Shown here: positions 28,681 through 61,392 of the stretch, one piece after another
Layout of the letters: every line of letters begins with the position of its first letter
How positions within the stretch are numbered: position 1 is the stretch's first letter
NCBI RefSeq assembly: GCF_058153355.1
Contig: NZ_CM177019.1
Direction: 5' to 3' (one strand)
DNA length: 64,000 nt
Translations under genes and position numbers: made by a program
Notes under the pieces: model-generated
Told to the model about the DNA's origin: nothing
The model's input: only the letters and a program-made list of their open reading frames with translations
The model's database searches: none

Positions 28681-28742
28681 TCACTTATCTGGTTTCCCTT
28701 TCCAAACGGAGAGGGAAACTGAACAACAGGCGAGGAGTATTT

Positions 28743-28958
28743 ATGGAACTCAACTGCCCAACCTGCCATAACCCTCTCGAACGCAACGGTGAAACTGCCC
28801 ACTGTGCAACTTGTGCCAAAGATTTCACCATTCAGGCGCTTTGTCCTGACTGCCATCAGCCATTACAGGTGTTAAAAGCTTGTGGTGCAGTAGATTATTT
28901 CTGCCAGCATGGGCACGGTTTAATATCCAAAAAGCGCGTTGAATTTATTGTTGCTTAA
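28743..28958 (+). CDS. yfgJ: zinc-ribbon protein YfgJ
   Basis: 71-aa ORF with CxxC...CxxC pairs. Confidence 0.85.
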   Translation: MELNCPTCHNPLERNGETAHCATCAKDFTIQALCPDCHQPLQVLKACGAVDYFCQHGHGLISKKRVEFIVA

Positions 28959-29149
28959 TATTATTTAAATATATGGTGTAATCATTTGTATTCATAATAT
29001 AAATGATTGCATCCTATTTTATTTGTTGAAACGCAAATGTAAGTGAGCGAAATCACTGTGTTATAAATTTAAGATTATATTTAGTTTTCCTGGCGTGCCT
29101 TTCTGAATAATCTGGAATAGAATATTAGAGCTAATTTTAAGCATTATTA
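28959..29149 (+). promoter_or_regulatory. AT-rich leader / probable promoter region of the accessory insert
   Basis: ~190 bp of AT-rich sequence immediately upstream of the sinH-like gene; no specific promoter elements resolved. Confidence 0.35.
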
Positions 29150-31342
29150 ATGTCACAGGGGATGTGCATGCTGCGATGGAAACGCTGTATTATGCTAACA
29201 TTTATCTCTGGAGCTGCTTTTGCGGCTCCAGAGATAAATGTTGAGCATAAAGAATCGTTACCTGATTTAGGTAGTCAGGCCGCACAACAGGAAGAGCAAA
29301 CTAACAAGGGTAAATCGCTAAAAGAGCGTGGTGCCGATTACGTCATTAACTCTGCCACGCAAGGGTTTGAAAACCTGACACCCGAGGCGCTGGAGTCCCA
29401 GGCCAGAAGCTATCTGCAAAGTCAAATTACCTCTACGACACAATCTTATATTGAGGATACACTCTCCCCCTACGGTAAGGTCCGAACGAATCTTTCTCTT
29501 GGTCAGGGCGGCGATCTGGATGGCAGTTCCATCGATTATTTTGTTCCCTGGTATGATAATCAAACTACTGTTTATTTCAGCCAATTTTCTGCACAACGAA
29601 AAGAAGATCGTACGATCGGGAATATTGGGCTTGGTGTAAGACATAATTTTGATAGATGGTTATTGGGTGGAAATATATTTTATGATTATGATTTTACCCG
29701 TGGGCATCGCCGTTTAGGTTTAGGTGCCGAAGCCTGGACTGATTATTTAAAATTCTCTGGCAACTATTATCATCCGCTTTCTGACTGGAAAGACTCCGAA
29801 GATTTCGATTTTTATGAGGAGCGTCCTGCGCGCGGTTGGGATATTCGCGCCGAAGCCTGGCTACCCGCTTACCCGCAGCTTGGCGGTAAAATCGTTTTCG
29901 AACAGTATTACGGTGATGAAGTCGCGCTTTTTGGCACCGATAATCTGGAGAAAGATCCCTTCGCCGTCACGCTGGGTGTGAAATACCAGCCCGTACCGCT
30001 CATTGCCGTAGGAACGGATTTCAAAGCCGGCACTGGCGATAATACCGATCTTTCTGTTAACGCAACGCTGAACTACCAGTTTGGCGTCCCGCTCAAAGAC
30101 CAGCTTGATCCTGACAAAGTAAGCGCGGCTCACTCGCTCATGGGCAGCCGTCACGACTTTGTTGAACGTAACAACTTTATTGTTCTGGAATACAAAGAGA
30201 AAGATCCCCTCGATGTCACTTTGTGGCTGAAAGCTGATGCGACGAATGAACATCCCGAGTGCGTGATTAAAGATACGCCAGAAGCAGCCATCGGGCTGGA
30301 AAAATGTAAGTGGACCATTAACGCGCTCATTAATCATCATTACAAAATCGTTGCTGCCTCCTGGCAGGCGAAAAACAATGCTGCACGTACGCTGGTGATG
30401 CCGGTTATCAAAGAAAACACCCTTACTGAAGGGAACAACAACCACTGGAATCTGGTACTGCCTGCCTGGCAGTACAGCTCTGATAAAGCCGACCAGGAAA
30501 AACTCAATACCTGGCGGGTACGCCTGGCGCTGGAAGATGAAAAAGGCAATCGGCAGAACTCCGGCGTGGTGGAAATCACCGTTCAGCAGGATCGTAAAAT
30601 TGAGCTCATCGTTAACAACATCGCCAATGTACCGGATGAGAACAATCACAGCCACGAAGCCAGCGCGCAAGCGGATGGTGTAGATGGTGTCGTCATGGAT
30701 CTCGACGTTACCGATAGCTTTGGCGACAACACTGACCGTAACGGTAATGTCTTGCCGCAGGATAATCTCAGCCCGCAGCTGTTTGATGCCAACGATAAAA
30801 AAGTGACGCTGGCGAATAAACCCTGCACCACCGAAGTGCCGTGCGTTTTTATCGCCAAACAAGATAAAGAAAAGGGGACCGTTACGCTCTCCAGTACGTT
30901 GCCCGGCACCTTCCGCTGGAAAGCGAAAGCCGCCCCTTATGATGACAGTAACTATGTTGACGTAACGTTCCTGGGTTCTGACATCGGCGGGCTGAATGCT
31001 TTTATCTACCGCGTTGGTGCAGCTAAGCCCGTCAATCTTATCGGCAACAAAGAACCGTTGCCTCTCAATAGCCGCTATCGCTTTGTGCTGTGGCGCGACG
31101 CTAACAAAGACGGCGTGTTCCAGCTTTCTGAGAAGCTCACTGACGACGAGATGAAACAGTATGACTATCAGTGGGAATTCACGGGGAATAGCGTAAATGG
31201 CAATACCGGCGCGCAAACCAATACCACGAACGTCGATATAGAGATCCCGGCAACCAACAAGGAAGCGGCAGCAAAATTTAATGCTCAGGTAACCGATGGC
31301 GTGCAGGGATACGGTTTGCAGGTCAATTACAGCAAGAAATAG
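29150..31342 (+). CDS. sinH: intimin/invasin-family inverse autotransporter (SinH-like)
   Basis: 730-aa ORF. Residues ~150–340 match the intimin/invasin beta-barrel translocator (…ERPARGWDIRAEAWLPAYPQLGGKIVFEQYYGDEVALFG…GVKYQPVPLIAVGTDFKAGTGDNTDLSVNATLNYQFG…SRHDFVERNNFIVLEYKEKD, compare intimin …LIYEQYYGDNVALF…SRYDLVQRNNNIILEYKK). Signal peptide present; first in-frame start may be downstream of 29150. Confidence 0.8.
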   Translation: MSQGMCMLRWKRCIMLTFISGAAFAAPEINVEHKESLPDLGSQAAQQEEQTNKGKSLKERGADYVINSATQGFENLTPEALESQARSYLQSQITSTTQSYIEDTLSPYGKVRTNLSLGQGGDLDGSSIDYFVPWYDNQTTVYFSQFSAQRKEDRTIGNIGLGVRHNFDRWLLGGNIFYDYDFTRGHRRLGLGAEAWTDYLKFSGNYYHPLSDWKDSEDFDFYEERPARGWDIRAEAWLPAYPQLGGKIVFEQYYGDEVALFGTDNLEKDPFAVTLGVKYQPVPLIAVGTDFKAGTGDNTDLSVNATLNYQFGVPLKDQLDPDKVSAAHSLMGSRHDFVERNNFIVLEYKEKDPLDVTLWLKADATNEHPECVIKDTPEAAIGLEKCKWTINALINHHYKIVAASWQAKNNAARTLVMPVIKENTLTEGNNNHWNLVLPAWQYSSDKADQEKLNTWRVRLALEDEKGNRQNSGVVEITVQQDRKIELIVNNIANVPDENNHSHEASAQADGVDGVVMDLDVTDSFGDNTDRNGNVLPQDNLSPQLFDANDKKVTLANKPCTTEVPCVFIAKQDKEKGTVTLSSTLPGTFRWKAKAAPYDDSNYVDVTFLGSDIGGLNAFIYRVGAAKPVNLIGNKEPLPLNSRYRFVLWRDANKDGVFQLSEKLTDDEMKQYDYQWEFTGNSVNGNTGAQTNTTNVDIEIPATNKEAAAKFNAQVTDGVQGYGLQVNYSKK

Positions 31343-31391
31343 GGTCGGCGCCATGGCTGATCGGGCCACCGCTGAATATTAATCAAGGAGA

Positions 31392-32390
31392 GTGTTTATG
31401 AAACCTGATATGAAACGTGGCCTGACAAAAGTCGCGCTCGCGTTGATGCTGGCTGGATACTGTGCCGTACCAGCCGCTATGGCGGAAGATGCCGCCTGGG
31501 TCGCCAGTGGAGCGACCGCTGAATTCGAAGGGACTATACCCTGGCTCTATCGCGAAGGGGGGAATGCCACGATTAACTCGGAAGATGCGGATCACATTAA
31601 AGTGACGTCTGATGGTAAAGGGACCCGTCCTCCAGGTAGCGAGACGGATAAACGCCTTTACTCAGGGGATACCATCACGCTGGGTTGGGATATCGGCGAT
31701 ACCGAAGGGGATATTGATGATGGTCCCGCAGGCATTGATGCGAAAACGACGGCCACTATCAAATGGTACAGCTACAGCAATAATGCGGGTGGCGATAAAA
31801 CTGAGCTGACCGCAGCGGCAGGCAAGACGAGTTATAAACTCACTGATGACGATCGTGGGCGTTATATCGGTGTTGAAATCCAGCCCATCACCCAGACCGG
31901 TAATCCCTTCGAGGGAACGTCGCTGACTCTGCTGGATATTTCAACGGCCAGCGGTGGCGGCAGCGATACGGACAATGTCGATCCCGGCCCGGTTGTGAAC
32001 CAGAATCTGAAAGTTGCCATCTTCGAGAAAGGCACCACTACCAACCTTATCGGTGGTAACACGGCCATTGCGCTTAATAAAACATATGTGGCCAAACTGT
32101 ACTCGGATGAAAACCAGAACGATAAATACGACGCAGGTACGGATATGGACGTTACCGCTAACTATGACTTTGCATGGGTCTTTAACGGTAACAGTAAACA
32201 ACTCCGTGCTGCAGGCGGTATTGCTAATGCCAGCTTCGATAACAATGACATTGTTATCCCGCAAACTAACGAAGAAGCAAGAACCAGCCTTAACGGTAGT
32301 GACCGTAATGGTAAGAGTGGTCTTGCGATCCCAGCAAACGGCGACGGCGTTCAGGGCTATACGCTGTCAATTATTTACAAACACCACTAA
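31392..32390 (+). CDS. sinI: secreted protein paralogous to the SinH C-terminal domain (SinI-like)
   Basis: 332-aa ORF with signal peptide (KVALALMLAGYCAVPAAMA). C-terminus shares clear motifs with the SinH C-terminus: YDFAWVFNGNS / YDYQWEFTGNS, IVIPQTNEEAR / IEIPATNKEAA, DGVQGYTLSIIY / DGVQGYGLQVNY. Confidence 0.6.
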   Translation: MFMKPDMKRGLTKVALALMLAGYCAVPAAMAEDAAWVASGATAEFEGTIPWLYREGGNATINSEDADHIKVTSDGKGTRPPGSETDKRLYSGDTITLGWDIGDTEGDIDDGPAGIDAKTTATIKWYSYSNNAGGDKTELTAAAGKTSYKLTDDDRGRYIGVEIQPITQTGNPFEGTSLTLLDISTASGGGSDTDNVDPGPVVNQNLKVAIFEKGTTTNLIGGNTAIALNKTYVAKLYSDENQNDKYDAGTDMDVTANYDFAWVFNGNSKQLRAAGGIANASFDNNDIVIPQTNEEARTSLNGSDRNGKSGLAIPANGDGVQGYTLSIIYKHH

Positions 32391-32499
32391 TGCGCACGAC
32401 TGCATTCCCGTAGGGGAATGCTGTTTTCCGCCTGTTTTGCTTAGCGACGCGTTAAGCAAAACAGGTTGATGTTTTGTTTATCATGTTGGAGTTTTCTAC

Positions 32500-35400
32500 A
32501 TGTCGGTATGTCTGAAACCAGGGAAAATCATTATGCTTCTGGGCATGTTGGCAGCGTTTATGCTGTCTGACTTTGCACGAGCAGGGGTGGAATGGCAGAC
32601 ATATCCTGATTCTACAGGCGAGTTTAACGGAACCGTTCCTTTTGCCGACAGCGCCAGCGTACCCGTCTATCAGGGCAGTGTTCAGCTTAATCCTGGCGAA
32701 TCTCATGATGTCGGGTTTTCTGCTAAACCGAATGAATTTAGCGTTGACGATGACGCCGCTAACCTGATTGTTGCTAATCCTCAGGACAATGAAGGCGACC
32801 AGTTTTCCACACCACCTGCGCTGCGCTGGGAAAATCAAACACCCCCTACCGTCAGCCTGGTGTGGGCCGATGCCGCCACGCCCGATGTACCCCTTAACCC
32901 ACAACCCATTGCTAACCGTAGCTTTTGTGCTCAGGGGCTCGCCGGACGCTCGCTGGTGGCCTGGCCGCAGATTGATGCGCAGCAAACCCTCCCACTGCTC
33001 TACCTGTTGACCTCGACCGGCTATCCCTATGCGGGGACGGTGGCGCTGGTGGACCAGAAAGTGACCCTGAACATCGCGCCCGCGCAGGGCGATTTAATCT
33101 CGGTGAGCGCCAGCGGTTATAACGAAACGATCGCGGCGGCAAAAACCACCGTTGGCGACACCATCACGCTCACCGTCACCACTAAAGATTGTCAGGGCAA
33201 CGTCGCGGGTAATATTCCGTTTATTATCAAACGTAAAGATGCTGAAAATCGCCAGGGGGCAGTGAATAATAGTGCGCCAGTGGTACTGGATAGCACCGAG
33301 TTAACGACGACGGCTACCGAATACCATGGCACCTCTGATGCCAACGGCACGGCCACCATCACGGTGAGCCAACCGAACGGCCCTGGCGTCAAAACGCCAC
33401 TGGTGGTCAGCATTTCCGGCATTGCGCAAACCAGCGAAACCGCGGTGATTTTTACGGTGCTCACCAGCCCGGACGCGGCGCAGGCTACGATGTGGGGCCA
33501 TATGGCGGAAACGGTAGAAGCGCACGGTTACACCTTCAGTCGACCAAAGCTGGCGGCAGAAGTCAGCAATGAAAGCGCCACGGTCGTCGATCACAACGAA
33601 ACCTGGTCCACCTTCACCTGGAGCGGCGCAGATAACCACTGCACCGTGCTGCCCGGCATGCGCCACTTCGGCGCGCTGGCGACCGTTATCCCCACATCGG
33701 TGCAGACAGTCCTTGGCTGGCCGATGCAGGGGGATTATTACTGGTCATCGCTGGCGGGCACCACCGGGCAGCACCATGCGGCGGATGTCTCTAACCGTGG
33801 TGAAACGCAAAAGCCGGATAGCACCCCGTTTCTTGTAAGCTGCGTGGATAAACCCGCGCCTGATGTCGAGCCGAAAATCGTCCTTACGCCCGAAAACTAT
33901 GATGATACGGCACAGGCGATGAAATCGCAGGTGGGCGAAGACGCCACGATGCGTCTGACGATCACCGACAATAAAAATAACGATCAACCACTGGCGTATT
34001 ACTACTTCTCGCTGCATCTGGATGACGGCGTTAACCGCAAAAATCAAACCGATTCCGCCTGGGAAGCCCATCCGGTGCAGATTACTGGTGGTTCGAATTT
34101 GCAACAGGTTGATGCTCACACCTATGAAGGCATGACCGATGTCAACGGTCAGGCTTCGCTAACCCTGAGTCAGCCCGACGGCGCAGGCGTGAAAACCCAT
34201 ATCACGGCGAAAATGCGCAGCAATTTTACGGCTACAGATGCCAAAGACGTGATTTTTACTGTGATCACCAGCCCGGACAGCGACAAGGCGCGGATGTGGG
34301 GCCATATGCGCGGCATTGTTGTATCTGGCAGTCTGTTCAAACGCCCAGTGCTGGCGGATGAAACTGAGCATGAACTGGGATCGGTGCGGGAAAATAACGA
34401 AGACTGGGCGCTGTTCGATCAAGACACCAGTATGCAGGCTGAATGCGGCGTCGGCCATACGCCAAGTCAGAGTGGGCTGGAAAGCCTTTTTTCAGCCCAT
34501 CCCGGTAACGCGATTGGCACTGAGTATGGCTGGCCCACCGCACAACAGAACTACCTAAGCGCGGTGGAGCAAGCCACGCATTCATCGGTGAATTTGGCGA
34601 ACGGAAACGTCGACAGCTACCCCGGCTTTAAGCGAAATTACCTCTCCTGTTCGGGCAATGAGATGGTCGCGAAGGTTGAAGTGAGCACCGATCACGATGT
34701 CACCCCTGGCAGCAAAGCGCAGGCCAAAGTGGGAGACACCGTCGTGATGACCGTGCGTACGGTTAACGCGCTCAATAATACCCCCGTTCCCTTTACTGCC
34801 TTCACCATCACTAAAGGCATGGGGTATAACCGAGCGGGGCTGGTGAGCGGGTTTGATGACCCGAGCAGCGGCGCAATCTCGATGAATGGCACGCAATACG
34901 GCACATCGCAGCCGTCGATGGTTTATACGGGTACGACAGATGCACAAGGCGTGGCAACGGTCGAAATAGAGCAACCACAAGGCGTCGGGCTAAGAACGGC
35001 GCTGAGCGTAACGCCGGTAAATTCCTACCTGCCGAATACCGTTAATTACAGCGTTATTTTCACCACCCCAACCAGCCCGGACGTTATTGGCGCGCAGATG
35101 TGGGGCCATATGGATGAAACGATTACTGTTGATTCATTAACCTTTACCCGGCCTAAGCTGGCAGCAGAAATCGCCAGTCCGGATGGCACACTAACGGAAA
35201 AAAACGAAGTCTGGGCGCGCGTTAGCCAGGCCAGTACGGCCATTACCAGTAAAGGCGGTTGCGGAGCCAATATGCTGCCGCGTCGCTCACAGCTCAGTGC
35301 GCTCTATGACGCTAATAACGGCAATGCGGTGCAAACCACACACGGCTGGCCGACGCAGCGTCAGCCCTACTGGAGCAGTTCCCCCGCGGATGTAACGCCG

Positions 35401-38400
35401 CACTATTACACCATTGCCCTGGATAACGGCGCACAGGCTATCGGCGGCGATACGCCGGTTTACGTCAGTTGCCTGACGACGGCGAACAAACCTGCCAGCA
35501 GCATTACGCTGGATGTGGTTGATAACGCACAGTGGGCTGCCGGAAATAACGCGGCGAAGCTGAAAAAAGGCGAAACGCTACGGGTTAAGGTAACGGTAAA
35601 AGATGCGCAGGGTAATCCGCTCACGGATATGCCATTTAAACTGAGTCGCGGAGACGGTTATACCCGCACGGGCGAAAAACATATTGCCGGTAGTGGCGAT
35701 GCGCTGGTGGCACCGGTGGTGATTAACAGTGGGCTGGCGGATGAAACGACGTTGAACGACACCGCGGGATTTTATACTGCCATGACCGGTAGCGACGGCA
35801 GCAAAATCCTCAATATTACCCGCCCGGATACTCACGGCACCAAAACGGCGCTGACGGCGACGTTGTATTCCGATGCAACAAAAAAAGACAGCCTGGATAC
35901 GATCTTTACTGTGGTCACCAGCCCGGATAGTAGCAAAGCGAAAATGTGGGGGCATATGCCGGAAACGGTGACGGCTGCGGACGGTACGGTATTTAAACGC
36001 CCGCTGTTGTTGAAGGAACTGGCCTATCAGACTGGGCGAACATCGACGTCTGAAGACAATGAAAACTGGGCGTTGTTTAACATTAATTATGCGAGTTCTT
36101 CCACGACGTATAGTGGCTGTGGAACCAACTATATTCCGACTCAAGCCGGTCTGACGTCACTGTTTGCTAATAATGCGGGCAACACCATGAAAACCGTGCA
36201 GGGCTGGCCGGTGGCAACACGCTATTTGTCCAACACGTCCGACAACGGCAGCATGGAGCAGCGTAACTACAAGGCGGTAGATCTCAGCAATGGCACGAGT
36301 GCGGCAGTGTCATCAACGGCGCTGCAACTGCTGACCTGCCAGACCACGCCGGTAACCACGGTGGGCCAAATTCTGCTGGAAGCGGCAGATCCGGCGACGC
36401 TGGATACCACCTATAACGTGGTAAAAGCGAAAAAAGGCGAAGAATCCGTGGTGCGCGTCACCACCAAAGATACGCAAGGCAACCTGGTGGGCAATACGGC
36501 ATTTATCCTGACGCGTGCCAACAGCGTGAGTCGGGCTAACGCATCAGCAACCGCGAGCGTGGGCGCGCTGACGGTGACGGATGCTTGGGGAAATACGCGA
36601 AATAATTTCCAGTCGACGAGTGAAACGATTTACGGCGTGACTGGTGCAGACGGGTCAACGACATTTACCCTGAAACAGGATAACAGTACCGGGTTAAGAA
36701 CCGATCTCACGGCAAAACTGGATACGTCCAGCAGCGTCAAGGCGACGCTACCGGTGGTCTTTACTGTCGTGACCAGCCCGGATTCGCCAAAAGCGAATTT
36801 TTGGGGACATATGGCCGAAACGGTGATGGCCTCCGACGGTACAATCTATAAACGACCACTGTTGTTGAAAGAGCTGAGTAACACCAGTGGTCGAAATTCT
36901 ACGGCTGAAAACGGTGAAGATTGGGCAAGATTCACCTGGACTCAGTCGGCTGACACCAGCATGAATGGGTGTGGTACAGATTATATGCCGACGCTGGATG
37001 GACTGAAGTCTTTGTATGACGCCAATAGCGGTAATGTGATGAGTACGGTGCAGGGATGGCCGGTAAAAACGACCTATCTCACCAATACCCCGAGTGATAC
37101 GCAAACAGGGAGCCGTTACTACAATGTGGTGCAACTGAATACTGGTGCAGTCTCACAAATCTCGACGAACACAGTCGTGCTACAAACCTGCCGCACAACG
37201 CCGTTGACGGCTGCTAGCCAGATTACGCTGGAGGCCTCAGACCCCGCGCAATTTGTCAGCATTGACAGTACGCTTAGCGCGATCAAAGTGCAGAAAGGCG
37301 ATAGCGTGTCGATCCGCATTTCGACTAAAGATGCACAGGGGAATTTAGTCGGCAATACGCCGTTTGCCCTGAAACACGCTAACCCGGTCAATCGCCAAAA
37401 TGTGGCGTCAACATCGCAGAAAGTGTCGGTCACGACTGCGTCGGGTACGACGGTGGATACCACTGCATCGACCATTCTGTATGGCGTGACCGGGCCAGAC
37501 GGAACCACCACGATGACACTCCGACAGGATGCGTCTACTGGACTCAAAACCGACTTTTATGCTCTGTTGAACGATACCGGCGTGTCGTCGAACACCTTGC
37601 CAGTGATCTTCACCGTCGTCACCAGCCCGGATACACCGCTGGCGGCCAACTGGGGGCATATGGCAGAAACCTTTACCAGCAGCAAGGGAGTCACCTTCAA
37701 ACGGCCTTTCCTCAAAGCTGAACTTTCTGGTGGTACGGCGGTAACGACCAATAATGAAGTCTGGTCGCGCCTGACAGCAACGGAGAAAACGGATGCCAGC
37801 AAGGCTGGGTGTGATGAGAGTTATCAACCGCTGATGACTGACATGCAGGGGTTGTATGCGGATTACCCTAACAACCAGTTGGGCACGGTGCTCGGCTTGC
37901 CGACTTCCGCCGGGTATATGTGGGCCTACGACATGATGACGGTTTCTGGCAGCAGCTGGAGCAACCAGGCATATTCGCTCGTTAATGGTCAGACAGTTCA
38001 GGCATCGTCCAGTTATACGGCGGTAGTGATGTGCCTGGTGGAACCGCATACCGTTCCGGCGATGATAGAGATCACTTCAACAGCACAGGATGCGGCAAAA
38101 ACGGTCAGCAATGGTGGTCGACCGAGCGCCGTAGCGAAGAAAGGTGAGACGATTCCGCTGACGGTGACCGTACGTGATAGCACCGGGAATCCGGTACCCT
38201 ACGCCGACTTTACCCTCACGCGTGGAACGACGCTGGATCGCTCGAAAGCAACCGTTAACTCGAGTGCGGACGATCTTACCGTGAAGTCATTGATACCCGC
38301 GAACAGTGACGCTGGGCTGACGGCAAATGGGGCAAAAGTGCTCAGAACAACGGGCAGTGATGGCACAGCCACCTTTGAAGTGAGCCAGAATGCCACGACA

Positions 38401-40590
38401 GGACTGGCGACCCCCATAACCGTCACGCTGGCGCGTGATGTAACCAAAACCGCCACGCTGGATGTTATCTACACGGTGATAACCAGCCCGGACTCACCGA
38501 GCGCGAAATTCTGGGGGCACATGCCGGACACCTTTACCAGTTCGGCAGGCGTCACCTTCAGACGACCGCTGCTGAAAGCCGAAGCGACTTCAGGGTCATC
38601 GATTAGCACTAACGGCAATGGTGAAGTGTGGTCGTATATGAGCAACGTTCAAAATTTAACATCGACAGATTGTCCGCTGGAGAATCAACCGCGCAGTAAT
38701 GAATTGTTGGATTTGTATAATGATCATCCCAACGGCGCGATAATGACTGACCTGGGGCTGCCGATATATGCAGGCAAGTGGTGGGCTTATGATATGGTCA
38801 TGCCGGATTTATATACGTGGCAGTATCAGACGGTCAGCCTGAGCGCAGGAGATATCGCGAAGAGCTCGGCAAGCAACGCGCTGATGCTTTGCCTGACGAA
38901 GCCGCATCCGGCAGGCGTCAGCGTAATGTTGACGTCATCCGCAATGGATAACGCCAGAACCCTCAGTAATGGCGGGCGACCCAGCGCGTCAGTGAAAAAA
39001 GGTAACCCACTGCCAATTGTGGTGACGGTCAAAGATCGTGATGGCAACCCGCTGGCGGGAGAGGCCGTGACGCTCAGGCGTGGTTCAGCGATGAGTCGTT
39101 CAGGAGCAGGAGTGGGCACGCCGGCAAATGCAATGACGTTGACAGAATTGACACCTGTGTCGGCGGAGTTTTCTCTGGCCGCACACGATACGCAATGGCA
39201 AGGTTTCACCGGCAGTGATGGTACGGCCACTTTCAATGTTGAACAGCCTGAGACCATCGGCCTGGCCATTTCGTTCACCGCTATACTGGCGCGAGATGTA
39301 GCAACTACCAGCGTCCTTGATGCGATCTTTACCGTCGTTACCAGCCCGGATTCCGCAATGGCGACCTACTGGGGCCATATGCCGGATACGGTAACGGCGG
39401 AAAACGGCGTGGTCTTTGAACGGCCTAAATTGTTGAAAGAGCTGCCGTCGAGCGCCGGAGTCAGTCAGGTGACGGATAACAATGAAGTGTGGCCGTTGTT
39501 TAAGGCAACGCAAAGGGAAGATAGCAGCCTCAGTCCTTGTGAAGCGGCACGTCGGCCATTGAGCGATGATTTATTATCGCTCTACGCGCGCTATCCGGGG
39601 AACACGCTGACGACTCAAATCGGCTGGTCTACGAAGTATGCATGGTGGGCACTGGATAACAAGCAGGGGAATGCCCTGGTTGTCAGTCTGAATAATGGTT
39701 TTGAGTCGTCGACGGCGAGTACGGGGTATCAGGGATGTCTGGTCAATCCCCGCGCGACCGTCTCCAGCGTCACGCTGACATCGACGGCGCTGGATGCCAC
39801 TACGCAGGCAGCGAAGGTAAAAAAAGGTGAAGCCGTGCCCCTCGTTGTTACCGTAAAAGACAACGCCGGGAAGCCGGTACCGAATGTCGCTTTCACCTTA
39901 AAACGTGGTGATGCCATGCCACGTAACAGCGGGGCGACGTTGTACGGTGATGTTGCGGCGATGGATGATATGACGGTACAACCTGCCAGCGGGACGGTGG
40001 TAACGCTGGCTGACAGTGGGAATACGGTCGACGGAGTGACTGGGGCGGACGGTACGGCAAGTTTTACCGTTCGTCAGGATAATACGCCAGGATATAAAAC
40101 GCCGTTGACGGTGACGCTGACGGATAACGCCACAATAACGGCGATGCTGGATACGATTTTCACCGTCGTTACCAGTCCAAATGTACCCACAGCCCATTTT
40201 TGGGGACATATGTCGGATACCACTGTGGTAAACGGTAAAACGCTACATCGTCCACAGTTGGAATCAGAACTGCCATCGGCAGCCATCATGGTGGCAACAC
40301 CGAACGTCAATAATGAGACGTGGGCACTGGCGCATACTGTTGACTCGCAAAAATGGGATATTTCGCAGCAGTGCGGCCTCCTTGATTTTGCACCGAATTA
40401 TGCGGATTTAGAGGCTCTGCACACTAACTTCAGTACTCTCGGATGGCCGTCAATGCCTAATACCCCCTATCTATCTAAAGACAGAGAGCGGTCAGGTAAG
40501 TATTACTGCGGTATGATTGAAGAGACAGGTTCTCAATCTTGCAGTATTGAGCCTACCAGCACGCCGGGATTTGCTACTTGTGTCAGGTAA
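32500..40590 (+). CDS. ratA: giant repetitive surface protein, RatA-like (2696 aa)
   Basis: Single uninterrupted ORF with N-terminal signal-like hydrophobic segment ([17 protein letters not shown]) and nine tandem modules each carrying the motif [IV]FTV[VI]TSPD-x6-WGHM…RP.L…E.W…GCG…GWP…C. Confidence 0.75.
33000..40300 (+). repeat. nine tandem ~840-bp coding modules inside ratA
   Basis: TSPD-WGHM motif DNA (accagcccgga...tggggncatatg) recurs at about 33465, 34267, 35065, 35915, 36773, 37623, 38483, 39343 and 40173, period ~800–860 nt; the copies are diverged, not identical. Confidence 0.7.
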
Positions 40591-40599
40591 AAAAAACAG

Positions 40600-40630
40600 A
40601 GCCAGCACGACGATGCTGGCGCGTTTTATC
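40600..40630. terminator. hairpin between convergent ratA and xseA
   Basis: gccagcacgacgatgctggcg followed by ttttat, in the 44-bp gap between the two stop codons. Confidence 0.5.
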
Positions 40631-40634
40631 TGAT

Positions 40635-42041
<1,407 letters not shown>

Positions 42042-42090: not shown

Positions 42091-42135
42091 CAAAAAGGGG
42101 TAGATGCAATCGGTTACGCTCTGTATAATGCCGCG
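42091..42135 (+). promoter_or_regulatory. guaB promoter (-10 TATAAT at 42124..42129)
   Basis: Perfect TATAAT hexamer ~45 nt upstream of the guaB ATG, with an A/T-rich upstream tract; -35 not confidently assigned. Confidence 0.45.
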
Positions 42136-53370: not shown

Positions 53371-54008
53371 TTACTCGTCGGCAGCGTAGCCCTGCGGCGG
53401 CAGACGTTGACCATCCAGCCACGCGGCGTTTTCGTGCATTTTCAGACGACCATCGGCAAACCAGCTAATCACCAGTGGATAAATAGCGTGTTCCTGGGTT
53501 TGCACGCGGGCGGTGATGTCATCCTCCGTATCACCAGCAAATACCGGGACTTTCGCCTGTAAAATAACCGGGCCACCGTCCAGTTCATCGGTGACGAAAT
53601 GCACCGATGTACCGTGCTCTTCATCGCCATTTTCCAGCGCCTGACGATGGGTGTGTAATCCGGGATATTTCGGCAGCAGAGAAGGGTGAATATTCAGCAA
53701 ACGCCCGGCATAGTGGGAGACAAACGCCGGGCTGAGAATGCGCATAAAACCAGCCAGCACGACCACATCGGGTGCGTACATGTCGATTTCATGAATCAAC
53801 TCCCGGTCATAGGCTTCACGACTGTCAAACGCGCTGGCGATGAGCGTATGCGTTGCAATACCCGCCTGGCGGGCGCGTTCAAGGCCGAACGCGTCGGCCT
53901 TATTGCTGAAAACTGCCCGTAGGGTGCCTTTAATTTTGTTGGCTTTGCAGGCGTCAATTATTGCCTGCAAATTACTTCCGTTGCCGGAAATAAGCACCAC
54001 AATATTCA

Positions 54009-54009
<1 letters not shown>
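53371..54009 (-). CDS. purN: phosphoribosylglycinamide formyltransferase
   Basis: 212-aa ORF MNIVVLISGNGSNLQAII...; start overlaps the purM stop. Confidence 0.95.
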
Positions 54010-55064
<1,055 letters not shown>

Positions 55065-55100
55065 TTACTTGCGGTAGAAAAATAAAAATTCGGCGCAATT

Positions 55101-55116
55101 CTAACAGGGAAAGCAA
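55101..55116. promoter_or_regulatory. PurR operator (pur box) of purMN
   Basis: AAGCAAACGTTTGCGA, 14/16 match to the PurR palindrome ACGCAAACGTTTGCGT, 55 bp upstream of purM. Confidence 0.6.
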
Positions 55117-55371
55117 ACGTTTGCGAGACTGCTTTACACAACCTTTTTGCACTTCATTTTCCCAAGCGCGCGGCGAAAGAATAGCTGCACCGTGGCAAAG
55201 GAGAGTTTTTGGATGGAATAATATTCTTTCATAACCACATGAATATAAAGTAACTTTATCTAAAACCGTTATCATTTTGACTAAAGTCAACGAAAATAAT
55301 ATTGCCGCCTTGAAGAAAGGAGGTATAATCCGTCGATTTTTTTTGTGGCTGCCCCTCAAAGGAGAAAGAGT

Positions 55372-55998
55372 ATGAAGATCGTGGAAGTCAAACACCCACT
55401 CGTCAAACACAAGCTGGGACTGATGCGTGAGCAAGATATCAGCACCAAGCGCTTTCGCGAACTCGCTTCCGAAGTGGGTAGCCTGCTGACTTACGAAGCG
55501 ACCGCCGACCTCGAAACGGAAAAAGTAACTATCGAAGGCTGGAACGGCCCGGTAGAAATCGACCAGATCAAAGGTAAGAAAATTACCGTGGTGCCAATTT
55601 TACGTGCCGGTCTGGGGATGATGGACGGTGTGCTGGAAAACGTTCCGAGCGCGCGCATCAGCGTCGTCGGTATGTACCGTAATGAAGAAACGCTGGAGCC
55701 GGTACCGTACTTCCAGAAACTGGTTTCTAACATCGATGAGCGTATGGCGCTGATCGTTGACCCAATGCTGGCAACCGGTGGTTCCGTTATCGCGACCATC
55801 GACCTGCTGAAAAAAGCGGGCTGCAGCAGCATCAAAGTTCTGGTGCTGGTAGCTGCGCCAGAAGGTATCGCAGCGCTGGAAAAAGCGCACCCGGACGTCG
55901 AACTGTATACTGCATCGATTGACCAGGGACTGAACGAGCACGGATACATTATTCCGGGCCTCGGCGATGCCGGTGACAAAATCTTTGGTACGAAATAA
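55372..55998 (+). CDS. upp: uracil phosphoribosyltransferase
   Basis: ATG at 55372 gives 208 aa [19 protein letters not shown]... Confidence 0.95.
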
Positions 55999-56083: not shown

Positions 56084-57373
56084 ATGACGCGCCGTGCTAT
56101 CGGGGTGAGTGAAAGACCGCCACTTTTACAAACAATCCCGCTTAGTTTGCAACATTTGTTCGCCATGTTTGGTGCAACCGTCCTGGTGCCCGTCTTATTT
56201 CATATTAACCCGGCGACTGTACTGTTATTCAATGGTATCGGGACGCTGCTGTATCTCTTCATCTGTAAAGGGAAAATCCCGGCTTATCTTGGTTCCAGCT
56301 TTGCCTTTATTTCACCGGTATTGTTACTGTTGCCGTTAGGGTATGAAGTCGCGCTGGGCGGCTTTATTATGTGCGGCGTGCTGTTCTGCCTGGTTTCTTT
56401 TATCGTGAAGAAAGCGGGGACCGGCTGGCTGGACGTGCTGTTTCCACCTGCGGCAATGGGCGCAATCGTTGCCGTCATCGGTCTGGAGTTGGCGGGCGTA
56501 GCTGCCGGTATGGCAGGTTTACTCCCGGCTGAAGGGCAAACGCCAGACTCCAAAACCATCATCATCTCCATTACCACGCTGGCAGTCACGGTTTTAGGTT
56601 CCGTGCTGTTTCGTGGTTTCCTGGCAATTATCCCGATTTTAATTGGCGTGCTGGTGGGCTACGCGCTCTCTTTCGCAATGGGAATTGTCGATACCACGCC
56701 GATTATTAACGCCCACTGGTTTGCGCTGCCAACTCTCTATACGCCGCGCTTCGAGTGGTTTGCCATTCTGACTATTCTGCCAGCGGCGTTAGTGGTTATT
56801 GCCGAACACGTAGGGCACCTGGTAGTAACGGCTAATATCGTCAAAAAAGATCTGCTGCGCGATCCAGGTCTGCACCGTTCGATGTTTGCTAACGGCTTGT
56901 CGACCGTGATCTCCGGCTTCTTTGGCTCTACGCCAAACACCACCTACGGGGAAAACATTGGCGTGATGGCGATCACCCGTGTTTACAGTACCTGGGTTAT
57001 CGGCGGGGCGGCGATTTTCGCTATCCTGCTTTCCTGCGTCGGTAAACTGGCTGCAGCTATCCAGATGATCCCATTGCCGGTGATGGGCGGCGTTTCGCTG
57101 CTGCTTTATGGTGTTATCGGTGCTTCCGGTATTCGTGTTTTGATCGAATCGAAAGTGGATTACAACAAAGCACAGAACCTGATCCTGACTTCTGTCATTT
57201 TGATCATCGGTGTCAGTGGCGCGAAGGTAAACATCGGCGCGGCGGAGCTGAAAGGTATGGCGCTGGCGACCATCGTCGGTATCGGCTTAAGTTTGATCTT
57301 CAAACTGATTAGTGTGCTGCGCCCTGAAGAAGTGGTGCTGGACGCAGAAGACGCGGATATAACAGACAAATAA
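56084..57373 (+). CDS. uraA: uracil:H+ symporter (NCS2 family)
   Basis: ATG at 56084 gives 429 aa [19 protein letters not shown]...; polytopic membrane protein. Confidence 0.95.
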
Positions 57374-60330: not shown

Positions 60331-61392
60331 ATGCTCGAAATGTTGATGCAATGGTATCGCCGCCGTTTTAGCGACCCGGAAGCGATTGCCTTGCTGGTTA
60401 TTTTAGTTGCCGGATTTGGCATTATCTTTTTCTTTAGCGGCCTACTCGCACCGTTGCTGGTGGCGATTGTGCTGGCCTATTTACTGGAATGGCCAACCGT
60501 GCGCCTACAATCAATAGGCTGCTCCCGACGTTGGGCGACATCGATTGTATTGGTCGTTTTCGTCGGTATTTTGCTGCTGATGGCGTTCGTGGTAATGCCT
60601 ATCGCCTGGCAACAGGGCATCTACTTAATCCGTGATATGCCGGGGATGCTCAATAAGCTCTCTGATTTTGCCGCCACGTTGCCGCGCCGCTATCCGGCGT
60701 TAATGGATGCGGGGATTATTGATGCAATGGCCGAAAATATGCGCAGCCGGATGCTCACCATGGGCGATTCGGTGGTGAAAATTTCCCTCGCCTCGCTGGT
60801 CGGTTTGCTGACCATTGCCGTCTATCTGGTGCTGGTGCCATTGATGGTCTTCTTCCTGCTGAAAGACAAAGAGCAAATGTTGAACGCCGTTCGTCGGGTG
60901 CTGCCGCGTAACCGTGGACTGGCAGGACAGGTGTGGAAGGAGATGAATCAACAAATCACCAACTATATCCGCGGCAAAGTGCTGGAGATGATCGTGGTGG
61001 GGATTGCCACCTGGCTGGGATTCTTACTCTTCGGGCTGAACTATTCGCTGCTGCTGGCGGTGCTGGTCGGCTTCTCGGTACTTATTCCGTACATTGGTGC
61101 ATTTGTGGTGACCATTCCGGTGGTTGGCGTGGCGCTATTCCAGTTTGGTGCTGGCACGGAATTCTGGAGCTGCTTCGCGGTGTATCTGATCATTCAGGCG
61201 CTGGACGGCAACCTGTTAGTACCTGTGTTGTTCTCCGAAGCGGTTAACCTGCATCCGCTGGTCATTATTTTATCAGTAGTGATCTTCGGTGGTTTGTGGG
61301 GATTCTGGGGCGTATTCTTCGCCATTCCATTGGCGACGCTGATCAAAGCCGTGATTCACGCCTGGCCCGATGGGCAAATCGCGCAAGAATAA
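60331..61392 (+). CDS. perM: AI-2E/PerM-family permease (YfgO)
   Basis: 353-aa multi-TM ORF; K-12 synteny. Confidence 0.85.
   Translation: MLEMLMQWYRRRFSDPEAIALLVILVAGFGIIFFFSGLLAPLLVAIVLAYLLEWPTVRLQSIGCSRRWATSIVLVVFVGILLLMAFVVMPIAWQQGIYLIRDMPGMLNKLSDFAATLPRRYPALMDAGIIDAMAENMRSRMLTMGDSVVKISLASLVGLLTIAVYLVLVPLMVFFLLKDKEQMLNAVRRVLPRNRGLAGQVWKEMNQQITNYIRGKVLEMIVVGIATWLGFLLFGLNYSLLLAVLVGFSVLIPYIGAFVVTIPVVGVALFQFGAGTEFWSCFAVYLIIQALDGNLLVPVLFSEAVNLHPLVIILSVVIFGGLWGFWGVFFAIPLATLIKAVIHAWPDGQIAQE

Follow-up and report, generated by a model that had tools for sequence, protein, structure and literature searches.

The window, by which we mean the whole 64-kb stretch of DNA that was analysed, carries purM and purN on its minus strand and the divergent gene upp on its plus strand. 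The purM-upp intergenic region of 325 bp is shared by the two divergent operons and contains a 16-bp pur box close to the purM promoter. The features of this promoter and of the operon are the following.

55111 to 55126, minus strand: PurR operator (pur box) TCGCAAACGTTTGCTT; an exact match, identical to the published ChIP-chip motif and to the PurR site deleted in a titration study
55113 to 55124, no strand: 12-bp perfect palindrome GCAAACGTTTGC with a central CpG, the symmetric core for PurR dimer contact
55110 to 55104, minus strand: spacer TCCCTGT, 7 nt from the box to the -10 hexamer, read from the sequence
55098 to 55106, minus strand: extended -10 element TGTTAGAAT, with TG at 55106 to 55105 and the hexamer TAGAAT at 55103 to 55098
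55091 (within about 2 nt on either side), minus strand: predicted purM transcription start, a G lying 7 nt past the -10 hexamer, placed by promoter geometry
55047 to 55090, minus strand: purM 5' leader, about 44-45 nt by alignment to MG1655, with one extra T in the run at 55084 to 55088 compared with K-12
54009 to 55046, minus strand: purM coding sequence, first gene of the operon, GTG start at 55046, 345 aa, phosphoribosylformylglycinamidine cyclo-ligase (open reading frame list and RefSeq annotation of matching E. coli records)
53371 to 54009, minus strand: purN coding sequence, second gene of the operon, 212 aa (open reading frame list)
55372 onwards, plus strand: upp, divergent from purM

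The start of purN and the stop of purM overlap by 1 nt, as they do in the MG1655 annotation. The purR gene is located outside the 64-kb window, and any E. coli would be expected to carry it.

Exact searching, together with a direct reading of positions 54700 to 55600, found a single occurrence of AAGCAAACGTTTGCGA in the window, at 55111..55126 on the plus strand. Because purM is on the minus strand, the operator in gene orientation is the reverse complement of this string, and the pur box read in the direction of purM is TCGCAAACGTTTGCTT. An earlier note, made from the sequence, had proposed this string as the PurR operator upstream of purMN and had placed it at 55101..55116, an offset of 10 bases towards lower coordinates; of the box itself, the stated positions take in no more than the first 6 bases, the remainder being the 7-nt spacer and 3 bases of the -10 hexamer of purM. 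The same note called the site a near-perfect pur box, and this is accurate. The 16-bp imperfect palindrome, with its central CpG, agrees with the consensus ACGNAAACGTTTGCNT (PMC3159470) at 13 of the 14 specified positions, and the sole mismatch is a T for A at position 1. It had also located the box over the purM promoter region, and this holds too: a spacer of 7 nt separates the box from the conserved extended -10 element downstream, which leaves the -35 region covered by the box. What the central CpG and the minor-groove hinge helices do is known from structural work on PurR bound to DNA (Schumacher et al. 1994, as cited in PMC10912719).

Relative to the transcription start predicted at about 55091, the box would span approximately -35 to -20, with its centre at -27.5. 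The centre of the box is at 55118.5, and subtracting 27.5 gives 55091, in agreement with the "28 nucleotides upstream" given in PMC3266220. The distance from the box to the purM GTG is 65 nt here and 64 nt in MG1655, the difference being due to the extra T in the leader. A sigma-70 scan of the minus strand called no purM promoter; it missed the purM -10 element because this lacks a good -35 hexamer, as expected for an extended -10 promoter. The absence of a promoter was therefore rejected as a reading of the scan, the promoter being of the extended -10 type with a poor -35 and conserved across species. Neither the name purM nor the predicted start coordinates occur in the text of the Cappable-seq supplements, which is possibly partial, and this was not counted against the start.

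The K-12 purMN operator

The primary operator and footprint paper for the K-12 purMN site is reportedly that of He et al. 1990, with Meng et al. 1990 also credited. In the K-12 ChIP-chip study of Cho et al. 2011 (Table 1, PMC3159470), the purM-purN motif at 2,619,140-2,619,155 (U00096.2) is TCGCAAACGTTTGCTT, within a bound region of 2,618,847-2,619,484. According to the same study, adenine raised the in vivo occupancy of this region, with a log2 enrichment of 2.08 in its presence versus 0.98 in its absence (PMC3159470). Liu et al. 2011 (PMC3266220) give the PurR site in the upp-purMN intergenic region as CGCAAACGTTTGCTT; when they deleted AAACGTTTGCTT from a high-copy clone, the protective effect of the plasmid became weaker, and the authors attributed this effect to titration of PurR. 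In a review (PMC10912719), purMN serves as the E. coli case of RNA polymerase being blocked by PurR, with hypoxanthine and guanine named as the corepressors. PurR sites are generally found between the -35 and -10 elements, where they act on initiation, and the geometry predicted for the purMN box is in line with this.

The reverse complement of the string in the window is the purM-purN motif of PMC3159470, and the alignment with MG1655 shows the two sites to be orthologous. The purMN box, being both identical in sequence and orthologous, corresponds to the site that PurR was experimentally found to bind in K-12. Thus, the check suggested by the earlier note, a comparison with the curated or published purMN site, gave the same sequence in the same place rather than a site elsewhere. 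We put at about 97% the probability that purMN has this site as its one PurR operator. The purMN pur box is real and is already known, published biology. Its value here is that of a calibration point: a textbook operator, with the right gene and the right repressor, had been recognised from raw sequence, with coordinates off by 10.

Pur-like sites and the divergent upp-uraA operon

Pur-like sites were scored with a leave-one-out weight matrix made from the 27 other PurR motifs in Table 1 of Cho et al. 2011 (PMC3159470), the purMN motif being excluded. The purMN box scores 17.24 bits in this matrix, in which the known sites range from 12.1 to 24.9. Five sites in the window reach at least 15.5 bits versus 0.64 expected, and none of 400 random windows reached five, although two of the five are in the training set. 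The window also contains the ChIP-chip motifs of guaB-guaA (GCGTAACCGATTGCAT, 42104..42119) and of yfgO/yfgC, now yfgO/bepA (CCGGAAGCGATTGCCT, 60376..60391), both identical to K-12 and both in the matrix training set.

Two sites of no known function, at 31287 in an adhesin gene and at 56460 in uraA, score slightly above the purMN box. The first (31287..31302, 17.5 bits) is at the 3' end of an autotransporter gene and is probably due to chance. A segment of about 12 kb (28682..40731), found between der and yfgJ and absent from K-12 MG1655, has genes for an inverse autotransporter of 730 aa (IAT_beta), a protein of 332 aa and an adhesin of 2,696 aa that carries BIg21 and InvE_AD repeats. We take this segment to resemble the SinH/SinI/RatA island. 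The possibility that the site at 31287 marks purine-related accessory genes was rejected, the Pfam assignments being those of an inverse autotransporter/adhesin island.

The second site, ACGGCAACGATTGCGC, lies inside uraA at 56460..56475 on the minus strand and scores 17.8 bits. MG1655, Citrobacter and Enterobacter have the same sequence there; in Superficieibacter, Photorhabdus and Providencia it was lost through synonymous changes, although the peptide GAIVAV is kept. No PurR ChIP peak is listed at this position (PMC3159470). With no listed peak and with synonymous decay outside close relatives, the site was rejected as a second operator. It is probably without function and shows how motif scanning can give false positives.

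The upp promoter occupies 55302..55345 and is identical to that of K-12, with TTGCCG, 16 nt, TATAAT and then GATTTTTTTTG at 55335..55345. This last element is presumably the T-run for UTP-sensitive start-site selection and reiterative transcription at upp.

An arrangement in which the purMN operator also controls the divergent upp-uraA operon, acting in both directions, could be imagined from the position of the box within the shared 325-bp region and from the pur-like site inside uraA. In addition, PurR represses several pyrimidine genes, for example codBA, pyrD and carAB (PMC3159470). We nevertheless consider such bidirectional action very unlikely: the box is centred some 200 bp upstream of the upp -10 element (55324..55329), and the uraA site is not conserved past close relatives. 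Moreover, looping between PurR sites is not expected, because PurR is a dimer without the tetramerisation domain of LacI. The ChIP peak was assigned to purM-purN only, with none listed at uraA (PMC3159470). It is likewise hardly probable that the operator and the uraA site (56460..56475) impose purine control on the upp-uraA salvage operon, or that the diverged spacer at 55153..55210 alters the integration of PurR and FNR inputs; the support found for either consists of motif co-occurrence and nothing further.

Chance expectation and conservation of the operator

In shuffles of the window, the exact 16-mer AAGCAAACGTTTGCGA is expected 0.00 times and is observed once. The 12-bp palindrome GCAAACGTTTGC is also observed once in the window versus 0.04 expected, and the idealised consensus ACGCAAACGTTTGCGT, with up to two mismatches, once versus 0.02 expected. 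The weight matrix is less discriminating. Under a first-order Markov, dinucleotide-aware null, the two strands of 64 kb are expected to yield 0.21 sites scoring at least as high as the purMN box, and one or more turn up in 19% of random windows. With this expectation, the motif score alone is not significant at the scale of the window, and it was rejected as proof in its own right. Nor does motif strength discriminate within the window, since the two probably non-functional sites described above score slightly higher. These figures are what favours the rival reading, in which the palindrome is neutral or there by chance and regulates nothing in this strain. The same Markov null gives a probability of about 0.001 for such a site inside the 325-bp purM-upp region. 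For motif-based scans there is a caution in this result, as two sites of this window score as high as the real operator without any sign of function.

Conservation within E. coli speaks against a chance origin. In the alignment with MG1655, the extra T is the sole difference across the box, the 7-nt spacer, the -10 element and the leader. Over the 42 bp around the box, 5,400 of 5,424 complete E. coli genomes match the window at 100% identity, so that the site is invariant in them inside an otherwise diverged spacer; one 42-bp variant that was examined has a base change 11 nt upstream of the box and leaves the box intact. The 501-bp purM-upp region, by comparison, is at least 99% identical in only 12 of the 5,424 genomes, and the intergenic region of this strain is about 4% diverged from most E. 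coli genomes. As the window is 94.6-96.5% identical to MG1655, and as so few genomes match it across purM-upp, its source is an uncommon, deeply branching lineage of E. coli. The closest record seen to the window was NZ_CP169399.1.

The substitutions that separate the purM-upp spacer from that of K-12 all lie in 55153..55297, where there are about 22 in 145 bp, 16 of them in the 58 bp of 55153..55210. This density is far above the window-wide divergence of about 4-5%, while the adjacent 55047..55152 differs by the extra T only. The segment 55153..55297 may be unconstrained spacer or a recombination patch between the divergent promoters. Positions 55277..55290 are identical in K-12.

For the comparison across species, representative genomes were scanned with a degenerate pattern for the sequence coding for YKDAGVDI in the N-terminus of PurM, an anchor that is blind to the upstream DNA. 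The 118 purM loci that had enough DNA upstream of them form an unbiased sample. A box of at least 15.5 bits was found at 90-109 nt from the anchor in 11 of the 118 upstream regions, the distance in the window itself being 104. All 11 loci belong to Enterobacterales, Vibrio or Pasteurellaceae (E. albertii, Citrobacter, Enterobacter, Superficieibacter, Photorhabdus, Providencia, two Vibrio and three Pasteurellaceae). The other 107 regions have no strong box, scoring at most 9.2 bits; they include those of Pseudomonas, Acinetobacter, Shewanella, beta-, delta-, epsilon- and alpha-proteobacteria, Firmicutes and archaea. Near the box-bearing lineages, the exceptions without a box are the symbiont Candidatus Enterovibrio escacola (locus L084) and an Orbaceae genome (locus L067).

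In the 12-species promoter alignment the core CGCAAACGTTTGC is invariant between flanks that defy alignment, and outside the coding sequence only one further block, CTGnTAnAAT, is conserved. Judged from this alignment, the pattern is a clean phylogenetic footprint of the operator and the extended -10 element. Across the range from Escherichia through Vibrio to Haemophilus, the core is unchanged and keeps a fixed distance to purM, while the look-alike inside uraA, by contrast, decays through synonymous changes. Position and cross-species conservation, and not the motif score, are what decisively separate function from chance here. Taken with the identity of the site to the one experimentally bound in K-12, they leave a chance or neutral palindrome with a probability close to negligible.

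Two lineages show variations around the conserved blocks. In both Vibrio loci (L043 and L075) the box is 18 nt from the -10 element instead of 7; as the 11 extra nucleotides correspond to about one helical turn, the operator is shifted upstream yet keeps to the same DNA face. The Pasteurellaceae loci L034, L066 and L097 have an inverted repeat, GACCGCACTTT followed at a distance by AAAGTGCGGTC, and then a T-run, just upstream of the pur box. This repeat resembles two DNA uptake signal sequences that together would make up the terminator of the gene upstream.

LacI-family operators share a palindromic layout and a central CG, and RbsR is said to cross-recognise the purHD promoter, but that the main in vivo binder of the purMN box is another LacI/GalR-family paralogue with a similar half-site, and not PurR, is extremely improbable given the match to the PurR consensus at all but one of the specified positions, the use of tagged PurR in the ChIP experiments and the rise of its occupancy with adenine (PMC3159470), and the attribution of the protective effect in the titration study to PurR (PMC3266220).

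Control of purMN and comparison with other PurR systems

With the site read as the PurR operator of purMN, the following control is proposed. When hypoxanthine or guanine is abundant, a dimer of PurR, a member of the LacI/GalR family, would bind the 16-bp palindrome TCGCAAACGTTTGCTT. Lying at about -35 to -20 of the predicted start, over the extended -10 promoter TGTTAGAAT, the bound repressor would be expected to block RNA polymerase by virtue of this position. Exclusion of the polymerase would in turn repress transcription of both purM and purN. When purines are scarce, PurR would leave the operator and purMN would be expressed. Steric exclusion is the probable mode of action at this promoter, and we infer that the same control is valid in this diverged strain.

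The K-12 purMN operator is orthologous to the one described here and has the same 16-bp sequence, spacer, -10 element and orientation to purM. The window differs from it by the roughly 22 substitutions further upstream and by the extra leader T, none of which touches the operator. The operators of purF, purL, purHD, purEK, purC and purT belong to the same palindrome family, ACGNAAACGTTTGCNT, and are placed between or over the -35 and -10 elements; as for purMN, initiation at these genes is repressed by PurR with hypoxanthine or guanine. Compared with the other promoter-overlapping pur operators, the purMN box begins with T at position 1 and ends in TT (positions 15-16), and in the leave-one-out matrix it reaches 17.2 bits versus 22-25 bits for purT, purF, purL and purHD.

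The downstream operators of purB and purR share the repressor and the motif family with purMN. However, they are found downstream of the start, in or near the coding sequence, where they act as a roadblock to elongation, whereas the purMN site is upstream and would block initiation. Finally, the PurR-PurBox systems of Bacillus subtilis and Lactococcus apply the same purine-responsive logic to pur genes, including a purMN example in L. lactis (PMC10912719). Their PurR is nevertheless a non-homologous regulator of a different family, with PRPP and (p)ppGpp as effectors and with a PurBox of different motif and architecture (PMC10912719).
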